Source: Escherichia coli
GTDB taxonomy: Bacteria > Pseudomonadota > Gammaproteobacteria > Enterobacterales > Enterobacteriaceae
Reading direction: 5' to 3' (one strand)
Length of the DNA: 64,000 nt
Assembly (NCBI RefSeq): GCF_050320075.1
Contig: NZ_CP190018.1
The first letter of the stretch is position 1; each line of letters opens with the position of its first letter. Below the pieces are notes generated by a model. That model was not told the DNA's origin. It searched no databases and worked only from the letters and a program-made list of their open reading frames with translations. Positions 28,061-32,624 of this stretch are shown here, piece after piece. Both the position numbers and the translations under genes were made by a program.

Positions 28061-30211
28061 TTAACGCCGCCGACGGCGTGGGGATTTCGTTTTTTCTTTC
28101 TTTTTAACTATACCTTCAGGGACTTCCGGTTGCTCTATCGGAAATACCGGTAATGCATCCAGTAGCCGCTTGCCGTAGTTTTTGGTGAGCAAGCGTTTAT
28201 CGTAAATCACCACTTCGCCCCAGCAACCGTGGCTTCGAATCAGTCGCCCAACCTGCTGAATCAGGTTAAACGAGGCGCTCGGCAGGCTTTGCACCTCAAA
28301 CGGATAGCGGTTGAGGCTTTTCAGCCATTCCCCTTCGGTGATCACCACGGGGCTGTCGATGGGCGGAAAAGCGATTTTGTGGATATGCACCTGGCTGAGC
28401 AGATCGCCTTTCAGATCAAGCCCTTCGGCAAATGACTGTAAGCCCACCAGCACGCTGCGCTCACCGTTGCCGACGCGTTTGCGGTGCAGTTCAACTAAAC
28501 GGTAACGCGGCTGATCGCCCTGCACCAGCAACATCAGGCGTAAATCCGTCACATAGTCGAGAAACCGCTGCATCGCCCGTCCGCTGGCAAACAGTACCAA
28601 CATACCGAGATGTTTTTTGCTCTCCACCTGCTCACGGAAAAAGGCTGCCATTTCAGCAATGTGCTGCTCTTCGTTGTCGATGGAAGGCTCAAAGCGCATC
28701 CGGGGAATAACAATTTTGCCCTGTTCGCAGTGGTTAAAGGGCGAATCCAGCGCCACAAAGCGGTCGCCCGCTTTCTCTTTCAGACCACTCATCTCCTGCA
28801 AACGCGAAAAACTGTTCAGCGAACGTAAGGTCGCGGAATTGACAATAATGTGCGGAATACTGCGCCACAGCAGCCTTTCCAGCTGATCGCTGACACGAAT
28901 ACCCACACAGTGAAACCAGAGATGCAGCTGCCCTTCGCGCTCTTCCCGCGTCGCCCATTTGGTCACCGGCGCACCGGAAGATTGCGCCAGAGACGCCAGC
29001 CGCCAGAGTTTGCTTTGCGCCTCGAACATCCCCAGCGCGCGATTCATCTGCAAAATCAACCGATGCAGACGTACAATGTCATGGCTGCCGGTTTTCTCAC
29101 TTAAATCGTTAAGAAATAACTCCGCCAGGCCACGCAGCATCTCGGTGAGTTTTGCCAGCCGCTGGCAGATCTCCAGCACTTCATCTGGCAGTTCGCCCAT
29201 CGCAAAACGGTGCTCTGCCTCCTGCCCGGCAGGCATGTAGAGATTGAGAATGTTGTTTAACGAGGCGATAAGCTCATACAACTCTTCACAATGCGCATTC
29301 AAACGTTCAGGGATCGCCAGCGGCGGGATGGTCTTCGGGCGAAACTGCTCCATGCAGGTAGCGACCAGTTTCGTGAACAAGTCCAACTGTAGTCGATACC
29401 ACGGCGCGGTGATTTCGGCACTCATCTCCAGCGCATCCCGCGCCACATCTGGCAGGTGATGACCTTCGTCCAGCACCAGCAGCAAATTTTTCGGGTCAGG
29501 CAATACGGCTTCGCTTTCCATCGCCGCCATCACCAGCGCATGGTTTGCCACCACCACTTCCGCTTCCTGAATCTCCCGACGAGCGACAAAAAACGGGCAT
29601 TCGCGATAGTAATAACAGTTGCGGTTGAGGCAGCTGGCTTTGTCGGTACTTAAACGACGCCAGAGATCGTCATCTATAGCGATATCAGTATGATCGCGCA
29701 GACCATCCCATTTATAAGTGTCGAGATCGCCCTTCAGCTTCGCACAACGTTTTTGCTCTTCCTGATTATTTGGCGTCAGTTCGTCGTCAAGAAACGCCAG
29801 CAGATCCTGTTGCGTGGGTTCAGTGCTGGCGAGCGCCGTCAGATTACGCGGGCAAACGTAGCGCCCACGCCCAAAAGCGGCAGTGAATTTAAGATCGGGA
29901 ATGATCTTTTTCAGCAGCGGTAAATCTTTGCTGTAGATCTGATCCTGCAATGCCACGTTGGCGGTACTCACCACCAGCGTTTTTTGCTCTTCGCGGGCAA
30001 TGGCGATGCCGGGAATCAAATAAGAGAGCGTTTTCCCAACGCCGGTGGGGGCTTCAATCGCCAGATGCCGCCCTTCTTCTCCGGCCAGCGTTTTGGCGAC
30101 GTCCGCAATCATCTGCCGCTGCGGCGCACGGGGAATAAAGTCGGGGATCTGTTCCTGAAGCGCCTTATACCAGGCGGCAATTTGCGCTTTAAGCGCGGCG
30201 GTTAATGCCAT
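28061..30211 (-). CDS. dinG: ATP-dependent DNA helicase DinG
   Basis: 716 aa; helicase motifs (APTGVGKT, DEGH); ATG confirmed at 30209-30211. Confidence 0.95.
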   Translation of the reverse strand: MALTAALKAQIAAWYKALQEQIPDFIPRAPQRQMIADVAKTLAGEEGRHLAIEAPTGVGKTLSYLIPGIAIAREEQKTLVVSTANVALQDQIYSKDLPLLKKIIPDLKFTAAFGRGRYVCPRNLTALASTEPTQQDLLAFLDDELTPNNQEEQKRCAKLKGDLDTYKWDGLRDHTDIAIDDDLWRRLSTDKASCLNRNCYYYRECPFFVARREIQEAEVVVANHALVMAAMESEAVLPDPKNLLLVLDEGHHLPDVARDALEMSAEITAPWYRLQLDLFTKLVATCMEQFRPKTIPPLAIPERLNAHCEELYELIASLNNILNLYMPAGQEAEHRFAMGELPDEVLEICQRLAKLTEMLRGLAELFLNDLSEKTGSHDIVRLHRLILQMNRALGMFEAQSKLWRLASLAQSSGAPVTKWATREEREGQLHLWFHCVGIRVSDQLERLLWRSIPHIIVNSATLRSLNSFSRLQEMSGLKEKAGDRFVALDSPFNHCEQGKIVIPRMRFEPSIDNEEQHIAEMAAFFREQVESKKHLGMLVLFASGRAMQRFLDYVTDLRLMLLVQGDQPRYRLVELHRKRVGNGERSVLVGLQSFAEGLDLKGDLLSQVHIHKIAFPPIDSPVVITEGEWLKSLNRYPFEVQSLPSASFNLIQQVGRLIRSHGCWGEVVIYDKRLLTKNYGKRLLDALPVFPIEQPEVPEGIVKKKEKTKSPRRRRR

Positions 30212-30225
30212 GAGAAAACCTGAAA

Positions 30226-30241
30226 TACTGTATAAACAGCC
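30226..30241. promoter_or_regulatory. Candidate non-canonical LexA (SOS) box of dinG
   Basis: tactgtataaacagcc (CTGT ... ACAG with shortened spacer) about 15 bp upstream of dinG ATG. Confidence 0.55.
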
Positions 30242-30381
30242 AATATTGTGGCATTTTTCGGTTTTCAGGGGTAATGGTTTTTCTGTTTCTGGAAAGCGGC
30301 TCGCAATAACGTTTTCCGGATGTGAAGTTTTCTCGCGGCAGAAGAAACATCATTGTGCAGCAAAAGACATTGTACATCAGC

Positions 30382-30663
30382 TTATTCCGCTGGCGGCCAT
30401 TGCAGAGCGGTATGTAAAACACGCAGTACCGAGAGCGTATCGCCCTCCACTTGATAGACAAGCACATAATGCGGCCTGACAACGGCTTCATGTGTACCAG
30501 CGACTCGTCCGGCCCGGTACATCTCCGGGCGTTCACAGGCCTGTTCCGCAATGGCTTCAAATTGATTATCAAGGGCTATTGCCGCTAGCGGATTATCTTT
30601 ACTGATGTATTCCATGATTTGCTCCCTGTCAGACAGGGACATTGGCTTCCATTCCAGACGCAT
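30382..30663 (-). CDS. ParE/RelE-superfamily toxin (type II TA)
   Basis: 93 aa; ParE-like pattern (...YISKDNPLAA..., ...VLVYQVEGDTLSVLRVLH...); start shares one nucleotide with upstream ORF stop (TAATG). Confidence 0.7.
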   Translation of the reverse strand: MRLEWKPMSLSDREQIMEYISKDNPLAAIALDNQFEAIAEQACERPEMYRAGRVAGTHEAVVRPHYVLVYQVEGDTLSVLRVLHTALQWPPAE

Positions 30664-31103
30664 TAATCCCCCTTCAGCAAGGCTTTTTTACGGGCAGCAA
30701 ATAGACTTTTGGCCTCTTCATGAGAGAGTGCCGGGCGTGGATCGTCAATGGCGGCCTGCACCTGCTCTCGAAACCAGGCATCATACGCGGCAGCTTCATG
30801 AGCTCGTTTTAATGCCTCAGCCCTGTCTGGTCGGGTCGTTTTCTTCTGACCGTCCGGGTCGTAATTAGAGGCGTCGACTTCAAACCGGGCAATACCAACA
30901 TCTTTCAGGTAGTTGACAACCGTTTCCAGCCGTTTGAACAGGCGGATTTGCCGACTGCGTTGTGCTGCAAGAGGCCGTTCAGTGTGGCCGTATTTCACGG
31001 TCAACGACCAGCCTCCCTGGGTGCCAATAACGTGTGCTGCATCCACTACGCCAGATTCAACCAGTTTATGTAAGGTTGAGTGATCGATCGTTTCTGGTGC
31101 CAT
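30663..31103 (-). CDS. Putative antitoxin, C-terminal PaaA2/ParD-like region with ~90-aa N-terminal extension
   Basis: 146 aa; C-terminal AAYDAWFREQVQAAIDDPRPALSHEEAKSLFAARKKAL resembles PaaA2-type antitoxins as I recall them; translationally coupled to the toxin. Confidence 0.55.
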   Translation of the reverse strand: MAPETIDHSTLHKLVESGVVDAAHVIGTQGGWSLTVKYGHTERPLAAQRSRQIRLFKRLETVVNYLKDVGIARFEVDASNYDPDGQKKTTRPDRAEALKRAHEAAAYDAWFREQVQAAIDDPRPALSHEEAKSLFAARKKALLKGD

Positions 31104-31227
31104 AATGCGCTAACCTCTTTGTATACAGCATGCAATTTATAATTAAAGATAGAGCAATTAATAATAAATTGCAGCACCTTGATCGTAAATTGCCCAGGAT
31201 AAAATTGCGGTAGAAAGAGACTTGTTG

Positions 31228-31250
31228 CGAAGATGCCGGGCATCGCCCGG
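31228..31250 (-). terminator. rhlE terminator hairpin
   Basis: gccgggcatcgcccggc inverted repeat just downstream of rhlE stop, T-run on - strand. Confidence 0.55.
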
Positions 31251-31259
31251 CATAAAAGA

Positions 31260-32624
31260 TTACTGCGCAGCGGCAGGTTTACGCGGACGGCGGCGACGTT
31301 GTTGTTCGCCTGCCGGTTTGGCATCGCCGAGACGACGAGACGGTTTTTCTGCGGGCTTCGCGTTACCAGACTTCGCACCACTTTCCGCACGGCGTGGTTG
31401 CTGTTGACCGCGACCACCACCTTGCCCACGACCGCCGCCGCCACGTTGCTGGCGACCGTTCTGGATCGGTTCGGCTTTGATTGACGGGTCCGGCTCATAA
31501 CCCGGAATCGCAATGCGCGGGATCTCTTTTTTCAGCAGTTTTTCGATATCACGCAGCAGTTTGTGTTCATCAACACACACCAGCGACAACGCTTCACCGG
31601 TAGCAGCCGCACGACCGGTACGCCCGATACGGTGGACATAATCTTCCGGTACGTTTGGCAGTTCATAGTTGACCACGTGCGGCAGCTCTTCAATATCCAG
31701 GCCGCGCGCAGCGATGTCAGTTGCCACCAGTACACGAATATCGCCCGATTTAAAATCAGCCAGCGCACGGGTACGCGCACCTTGCGATTTATTGCCGTGG
31801 ATCGCCGCACTACGGATGCCATCTTTATTGAGCTGTTCAGCCAGATGGTTAGCGCCATGTTTGGTACGGGTAAACACCAGCACCTGCTGCCAGTTCCCTT
31901 TCCCAATCATGTGCGACAACAATTCGCGTTTGCGTTTCTTATCAACAAAGTGAACATGCTGGGTCACCTGATCAGACGCGGTATTGCGGCGTGCCACTTC
32001 GATTTCCAGCGGGTTGTGCAACAGTTTTTCCGCCAGAGCTTTAATATCGTCAGAGAAGGTCGCGGAGAACAACAGGTTCTGGCGCTTCGCAGGTAGTTTT
32101 GTTAACACGCGACGGATATCGTGGATAAAGCCCATGTCGAGCATGCGGTCAGCTTCATCGAGGACGAGGATTTCAACCTGATCCAGCTTCACCGCATTCT
32201 GATGTTCCAGGTCCAGCAGACGTCCCGGCGTTGCAACCAGCACATCAACGCCGCCGCGCAACTTCATCATCTGCGGGTTAATGCTGACACCGCCAAACAC
32301 CACCAGCGAACGAATGTTCAGGTATTTGCTGTAATCACGGACGTTTTCGCCAATCTGCGCCGCCAGTTCACGGGTCGGGGTAAGAATGAGCGCACGTACC
32401 GGACGACGCCCTTTGGCGTGCGGCTGGCGAGTGATCAGGTGTTGCAACAGCGGCAGCGTAAAGCCCGCTGTTTTGCCGGTGCCAGTCTGGGCGCTAGCCA
32501 TCAGGTCGCGGCCTTCCAGCACCGCAGGGATCGCCTGCTGCTGAATAGGGGTGGGTTCACGGTAACCCTGCTCGGCAACGGCGCGCAGGATATCAGGGCT
32601 TAAACCCAAAGAATCGAAAGACAT
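31260..32624 (-). CDS. rhlE: DEAD-box RNA helicase RhlE
   Basis: 454 aa; Q-motif, [12 protein letters not shown] (VLDEAD), basic RGG-rich C-tail. Confidence 0.95.

Follow-up and report, generated by a model that had tools for sequence, protein, structure and literature searches.

Within a 64,000-nucleotide stretch of Escherichia coli chromosome (contig NZ_CP190018.1; below, the window), two overlapping minus-strand open reading frames (ORFs) lie between dinG (28061-30211) and rhlE (31260-32624), which are themselves on the minus strand. The first ORF (30663-31103, 146 amino acids) and the second (30382-30663, 93 amino acids) probably constitute a self-contained two-gene type II toxin-antitoxin (TA) module, the antitoxin of which joins a PaaA2-like tail to a ParC-like head that most likely binds the operator. 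In the mechanism proposed, two helices of the tail (about residues 91-146) would, by homology, wrap and block the toxin in the way that PaaA2 blocks ParE2. The head (residues 1-82), according to comparative genomics and structure prediction, is an alpha/beta domain, most likely a dimer, whose basic loop would bind a GCAAT-N9-ATTGC palindrome and flanking half-sites. The bound sites would cover the -10 and -35 boxes, so that the antitoxin, alone or with the toxin, would repress its own operon, and the head would take the role held by the separate regulator PaaR2 in the three-gene system of E. coli O157 or by the ribbon-helix-helix (RHH) domain of ParD, CopA, and PrpA.

The antitoxin gene (30663-31103, minus strand; WP_001522657.1) consists of 146 codons with an ATG start and a TAA stop, as given by the ORF list, RefSeq, and homologue clusters, and direct reading of the sequence places a Shine-Dalgarno-like AAGAGG (31114-31119, minus strand) 10 nt before the ATG. 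RefSeq assigns the protein identical coordinates and length and calls it “antitoxin PaaA2 family protein” or “hypothetical protein,” depending on the genome. The original prediction, made from the sequence alone, had remarked on the length of this ORF and on its lack of an internal methionine, and had allowed that the true start might be a downstream non-ATG codon. In a search of 5.8 billion proteins we recovered 900 homologue clusters at E <= 0.001; the best 120 were nearly all 143 to 161 amino acids long (four were longer, up to 201), and nearly all had both domains. With more than 900 such clusters, and with conservation as high along the head as along the tail, the comparative sequence evidence indicates that this 146-amino-acid reading frame did not arise by chance. 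When one genome per species was scanned, at least 268 encoding loci were recovered. The start M-x-x-E-T-I-D-H, or a close variant, was present in all of the best 80, from alpha-, beta-, and gammaproteobacteria, and in several of them an in-frame stop lies just upstream. Pairwise ratios of nonsynonymous to synonymous substitution (dN/dS) were 0.05 to 0.17 over codons 2 to 88, with similar values in the tail.

These observations leave next to no probability to an internal translation start that would yield a conventional antitoxin of about 60 amino acids and make the upstream 80 to 90 codons a leader or a mis-annotation. Such a start would account for the unusual length, O157 PaaA2 having 63 to 71 amino acids, and a Shine-Dalgarno-like GGGAGG does precede the TTG at codon 34, though the product from that codon would still be 113 amino acids long. 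The sole methionine is at position 1, as the original prediction stated, and in-frame ATG, GTG, or TTG codons follow the start only at codons 20, 34, 36, 115, and 142. A short antitoxin is thus excluded by the absence of any in-frame start codon from 37 to 114, by the start and head sequence kept at 80 of 80 loci, and by the low dN/dS, and a start at codon 115 would cut the PaaA2 motif. The head, moreover, is confidently folded in the AlphaFold2 (AF2) model and is carried by 412 clusters at 50% identity. As judged from the sequence comparisons, the long form of the antitoxin is real and its start is fixed.

Similarity to known antitoxins proved to be restricted to the C-terminal part of the protein, where it had first been noticed, the PaaA2-like segment covering about residues 91 to 140. 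Pfam PaaA2 (PF21217) matches residues 104 to 130 with 40.9 bits against a cut-off of 27, and the solved O157 PaaA2 (3zbe_A) aligns with residues 83 to 139 (E 2e-4). NCBIfam TA_RelB_antitoxin (NF050103), the equivalog for RelB-family antitoxins of type II TA systems, matches only the tail (residues 102 to 131), at 47.1 bits, just under its cut-off of 50. Taken together, the Pfam, NCBIfam, 3zbe_A, and AF2 results delimit a PaaA2-like tail at residues 91 to 146 (30666-30833, minus strand), with an invariant RPDR motif, predicted helices at 94 to 119 and 128 to 144, and a presumed toxin-neutralising role. The antitoxin scores above the PF21217 gathering threshold and lies directly upstream of a ParE-family toxin gene, which places it in the PaaA2 family.

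The second gene (30382-30663, minus strand; WP_001522659.1) encodes a 93-amino-acid toxin of the ParE/RelE superfamily, named “type II toxin-antitoxin system RelE/ParE family toxin” in RefSeq, and its ATG and the antitoxin stop have 1 nt in common (TAATG). It matches Pfam ParE_toxin (E 1.2e-13), and its best solved relative is O157 ParE2 (5cw7_B; E 1.7e-6). The comparison with three-gene ParE2 systems drawn in the original prediction was therefore apt, since the best solved relatives of toxin and tail are O157 ParE2 and PaaA2, and by descent both parts appear, from their sequences, closest to O157 PaaA2-ParE2. For O157 ParE2 itself, no target has been established (PMC8630535). Read from translations, a ParE-like ORF lies within 4 nt of the antitoxin stop at about 70 of 80 loci; counting mechanically every ORF of 70 amino acids or more by that stop gave 76 of 81. 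Gene calls on contigs from beta-, alpha-, and gammaproteobacteria contain the pair too, as does a Klebsiella IncFIA plasmid. Four loci (L032, L040, L069, and L050) have the two-domain antitoxin gene with no ParE-like ORF downstream, and these look like orphan antitoxins or decayed toxins.

To the N-terminal region (residues 1 to 82; 30858-31103, minus strand) the original prediction could give no family name, and here the databases do supply one. Precomputed Pfam annotation puts PF28031, “ParC-like,” on a 99%-identical protein (P0001) and on nearly all homologues, some of them marked “weak”; our direct Pfam scan of the query gave no PF28031 match, the scanned copy of Pfam apparently being without that model. 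The NCBIfam ParC model NF041544 matches residues 6 to 83 of the query with 33 bits (E 3.5e-8), below its cut-off of 95, which suggests distant homology only. With a score so far below the cut-off and no partition context, the protein falls outside the ParC equivalog family. The domain search and structure prediction that had been proposed for this region thus gave a ParC-like relation and a confident alpha/beta fold. In the AF2 model, built on a 48-sequence alignment, the head has a predicted local distance difference test (pLDDT) score of 89 to 94 over residues 11 to 80 (means of ten-residue blocks). The predicted order is helix 8-17, strands 20-28, 31-38, and 41-46, basic loop 47-58, helix 59-69, and strand 75-77, followed by a linker of lower confidence; the full-length monomer has a predicted template modelling (pTM) score of 0.54. 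On the evidence of the PF28031 annotation of the homologues, NF041544, AF2, and dN/dS, the head is a conserved independent domain.

Its fold resembles no familiar antitoxin head. No RHH, ParD, or other known DNA-binding family was found in the antitoxin in Pfam, NCBIfam, and PHROGs up to E = 1, where only PaaA2, TA_RelB, ParC, and families of unknown function appeared, and the predicted head fold shows no resemblance to RHH, helix-turn-helix (HTH), AbrB, or Phd/YefM heads. A sequence search found no solved relatives of the head; a fold search returned weak matches only, the nearest solved folds being eL38 and the FtsH N-domain, and a viral fold library gave matches only to uncharacterised phage proteins of 80 to 140 amino acids. 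The 412 clusters mentioned above came from a search with residues 1 to 88. Most of them carry tails of 60 to 75 residues with an R-P-D-R...W-F-R motif, and in the remaining relatives, 77 to 90 amino acids long, the tail is short and basic or missing. Possible kinship with KorA regulators was considered and dropped as too thin, 1 of 150 representatives having matched NF041289 (E 9.5e-5). In the literature we found no paper joining ParC-like domains to TA systems and no published function for the head. A database display of both domains already exists, and the architecture and the head appear to be uncharacterised; the current names “hypothetical protein” and “PaaA2 family” understate the architecture of this antitoxin.

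Upstream of the antitoxin gene is a central 19-bp palindrome, GCAATTAATAATAAATTGC in plus-strand spelling, at 31154-31172 (a 9-1-9 arrangement, inverted repeat I8), which we propose as the operator on the basis of the repeat, the locus counts, and the consensus. It belongs to an operator region at 31132-31208 made up of five GCAATTW half-sites (31132-31140, 31154-31162, 31164-31172, 31185-31193, and 31200-31208; repeat families D2, D3, I1, and I2). Five of the 26 GCAATTW matches in the 64-kb window fall within these 77 bp, and the total of 26, against 34 expected, shows no enrichment elsewhere. The only minus-strand sigma-70-like match in the interval, a consensus-scan prediction with 9 of 12 matches at 31161-31189, has its -35 box (TTTACG, 31189-31184) inside a flanking half-site and, after a 17-nt spacer, its -10 box (TATTAT, 31166-31161) inside the palindrome spacer. 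Palindrome and half-sites would therefore overlie both boxes, an arrangement through which the antitoxin would repress its own operon.

The same site recurs with the module. When the upstream regions of 81 loci were scored for GCAAT-N9-ATTGC, allowing at most one mismatch over the ten arm positions, 54 had it, 48 to 79 nt before the start, and 16 of these sites were perfect; after shuffling of the upstream regions, 0.3 loci would be expected. Elsewhere in these loci, 329 kb of sequence holds 10 sites at no more than one mismatch and none that is perfect. The consensus of 37 distinct sites is TTGCAAT-Y-TAT-W-AT-T-R-ATTGC-R-T-A, with a -10-like TATWAT at its centre and the scored arms outside the -10 hexamer. 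The palindrome accompanies the module on chromosomes and plasmids of alpha-, beta-, and gammaproteobacteria, and because it is kept with a two-gene cassette across three classes, whatever binds it is most simply a product of that cassette. With neither the tail nor the toxin a DNA binder, and no further candidate encoded in the module, the head would be the part that binds the operator; PaaA2 itself is stated to lack a DNA-binding domain (PMC8630535).

A second line of evidence points to a particular element of the head. Its most conserved exposed stretch, A-A-Q-R-S-R-Q-x-R-x-F-K/R, lies between strand 3 and helix 2, and Q48, R49, R54, and F56 do not vary among 48 sequences (alignment A1). We propose the corresponding conserved basic segment, residues 43 to 58 (RPLAAQRSRQIRLFKR; 30930-30977, minus strand), with a net charge of about +6, as the putative DNA-contact element, in view of its conservation, its charge, and the association of loop and palindrome. 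That association is as follows: the palindrome is present at 53 of the 70 loci with Q-R-S at positions 48 to 50 and at 1 of the 11 with a changed motif (Fisher p = 4e-5, or 0.005 after dereplication at 85% identity, with no correction for phylogeny). It counts as supporting evidence and is not decisive. Four loci (L055, L063, L073, and L079) have a T/K-N-S/T-R loop in place of Q-R-S-R and, in the upstream 110 nt, TTACAAT or ATTACA-type repeats, not the GCAAT palindrome. At two others (L058 and L074) the loop is Q-R-G-K, and a common motif of CACTTAA type lies upstream. A homodimer of the head is plausible in a model in which two copies joined by a 30-residue Gly/Ser linker gave a pTM of 0.77 and a pLDDT of 89 to 97 in the domain block, the linker being disordered.

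The suggestion that the N-terminal region is a fused DNA-binding or regulatory domain has thus stood in part: the domain is conserved, and a palindrome lies upstream over the predicted promoter and is absent from loci with a changed loop, while the binding itself is our inference. Several observations weigh against it. The promoter is predicted from a consensus match only, and 27 of the 81 loci have no palindrome at one mismatch or fewer. General divergence alone could yield the association between loop and operator, and the linker in the two-copy model can force contacts. The E. coli head is near neutral overall (pI, the isoelectric point, of 6.9), its fold matches no known DNA-binding fold, and the literature we found gives no ParC-like protein shown to bind DNA. 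Stand-alone ParC-like genes adjoin RelB-type antitoxins already equipped with a DNA-binding domain (L090 and L101), and no GCAAT palindrome was seen upstream of eight stand-alone or differently fused ParC-like genes (L090, L091, L092, L096, L100, L101, L103, and L104), some of which have other palindromes upstream. The variety of partners to which ParC-like domains are attached fits a portable regulatory head and, equally well, a portable interaction module.

These points could be accommodated if the head were a structural or partner-binding domain, serving oligomerisation, protease recruitment, or contact with the cellular or plasmid-partition machinery, and if the palindrome were bound by something else or reflected promoter architecture. 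We regard this explanation as unlikely, though it deserves to be taken seriously. It would agree with the nearest folds being eL38 and the FtsH N-domain, with the near neutrality of the E. coli head, and with the description of the namesake ParC solely as an auxiliary partition protein (PMC4785139). It would agree, too, with ParC-like domains standing beside RelB/ParE pairs already provided with a DNA-binding antitoxin, or ahead of such unrelated partners as an M48 protease and a YjaZ-like protein. It fares less well with a palindrome that travels with the module over three proteobacterial classes, for which the binder is most simply module encoded while neither tail nor toxin binds DNA. The scored arms, for their part, lie outside the -10 hexamer, and changes in the basic loop accompany loss or change of the operator. 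Operator binding by the head remains the reading we prefer. The broader proposition that the ParC-like fold is an unrecognised class of sequence-specific dimeric DNA-binding domain, serving as the operator-binding head of a large ParE-antitoxin family beside the RHH, HTH, AbrB, and Phd/YefM classes, we hold to be about evenly balanced between true and false.

The name of the family comes from plasmid partition loci. ParC of the IncP-6 plasmids (Rms149/pRA2) is distantly homologous to the head, and both fall under PF28031; the Rms149 protein, of 128 amino acids, is 22% identical to the head and shares with it the pattern R-x-F-[KR]...L-[KR]-x-x-G-[IV]. Unlike the antitoxin described here, IncP-6 ParC has no PaaA2-like tail and sits by the ParG/ParA partition genes, parC of Rms149 adjoining the ParG gene. 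The “ParC” of the IncP-9 plasmid NAH7 was also considered as a relative of the head and rejected, having no detectable similarity either to the IncP-6 ParC family or to the head (L095 2016-2468 compared with L099 48086-48472). To judge from their sequences, the NAH7 and Rms149 proteins are two unrelated plasmid proteins under one name; the function of the former is stated to be unknown (bioRxiv 10.1101/2025.01.22.634284).

Kinship with a partition-associated protein raises the question of whether the head acts mainly at other genomic or plasmid sites, such as centromere-like sites or replication origins, with repression of the operon secondary. The 380 plasmid records that carry the domain are in keeping with this, as is the precedent of PrpA, an antitoxin cognate to a ParE toxin that binds DNA at a second target, the plasmid iterons (PMC7848731). 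In E. coli, however, the module is chromosomal, between dinG and rhlE and with no plasmid genes near, GCAATTW is not enriched elsewhere in the window, and the 329 kb flanking the modules holds no exact palindrome and only the 10 near matches given above. We consider a principal role at other sites quite improbable.

Other ParC-like proteins occur in several settings. A stand-alone head of 77 to 90 amino acids is found beside RelB/ParE pairs: on a 7.5-kb plasmid of Aeromonas hydrophila (L090 2498-3346) and in a metagenomic contig (L101 877-2075), a ParC-like gene encoding 79 to 86 amino acids accompanies a RelB-type antitoxin and a ParE/RelE toxin, and this neighbourhood recurs. On the Xanthomonas citri plasmid pXAC64 (L091 1805-2856), a 149-amino-acid protein combines a ParC-like head with a different tail, and the gene for a 201-amino-acid M48-family metalloprotease overlaps its end; the pair could be a different two-gene module on the same head. 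ParC-like domains are present on 191 Xanthomonas plasmid records. The Fluviibacter plasmid pSHINM1 (L092 2489-3412) encodes a ParC-like protein of 106 amino acids followed by a 181-amino-acid protein with a weak match to YjaZ (63 bits, cut-off 324).

Among characterised systems, PaaR2-PaaA2-ParE2 of the E. coli O157:H7 prophage CP-933P (PDB 3zbe and 5cw7) has the same tail and toxin relatives and the same order, antitoxin gene before ParE-family toxin gene. It differs in that a third gene, paaR2, encodes a CI-like repressor that controls transcription (PMC8630535). The O157 system thus has a separate regulator gene and lies in a prophage immunity region, whereas the module described here is chromosomal and has no third gene, the 156 bp from rhlE to the antitoxin start codon containing no ORF. 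O157 PaaA2, at 63 to 71 amino acids, has no DNA-binding domain, and the 146-amino-acid antitoxin carries an extra 82-amino-acid ParC-like head. With an antitoxin of this length, an additional folded domain, and no regulator ORF, the module falls outside the three-component PaaR2-PaaA2-ParE2 type. In its proposed logic it is closer to ParD/ParE, CopA_SO/ParE_SO, and PrpA/PrpT, which likewise combine an N-terminal dimeric operator-binding domain with a C-terminal toxin-wrapping tail, and in which antitoxins of this type autoregulate by way of inverted repeats that lie in the promoter (PMC8706911, PMC9731233). The heads of ParD, CopA_SO, and PrpA are RHH domains of about 45 to 50 amino acids, in contrast to the helix, three strands, basic loop, helix, and strand predicted here.

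If the proposed reading is correct, operator binding would be the first testable function for a named, uncharacterised family that includes ParC of the IncP-6 resistance plasmids, and a new fold would join the few DNA-binding domains of antitoxins. Plasmid ParC and the other ParC-like proteins, whether stand-alone or paired with M48 or YjaZ partners, would then also be DNA-binding regulators. The study of O157 PaaA2 raises the question of whether an ancestor of PaaA2 possessed a DNA-binding domain and lost it later through decay (PMC8630535); to this, a widespread relative that has a complete N-terminal domain and does without a third gene is directly relevant. If the head binds DNA, the two-domain protein would give a picture of the ancestor from which the head-less O157 PaaA2 arose, as it was before dependence on PaaR2.

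The module lies in a replacement cassette. By blastn against the corresponding K-12 locus (L093), homology ends at window position 30310 and restarts at 31232, which delimits a cassette of 921 bp (30311-31231). E. coli K-12 has no cassette; the same interval there (window 30311-31231 against L093 2766-3471) holds ybiA, encoding the N-glycosidase YbiA, on the opposite strand. The 921-bp cassette replaces ybiA in the rhlE-dinG interval. Using a 1151-bp query that spans the interval, at least 80% covered, we found the cassette in 324 of 5426 complete E. coli genomes, so that the module marks about 6% of them, in place of ybiA beside the SOS gene dinG. The antitoxin gene has as neighbours the toxin gene, dinG, and rhlE. 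Neither the antitoxin nor the toxin matched the PADLOC models of anti-phage defence.

The TA operon runs in the same direction as dinG and lies directly upstream of it. The LexA box of dinG, CTGTTTATACAG, is kept at about 30228-30239 on the minus strand. No terminator-like site was detected when the stretch from the toxin stop to dinG (window 30212-30381) was scanned, so read-through from the TA operon into this SOS gene is conceivable. At the other end, directly after the rhlE stop and within sequence that K-12 also has, there is a perfect 9-3-9 hairpin (ATGCCGGGC / GCCCGGCAT; 31233-31253), probably the rhlE terminator and outside the cassette.

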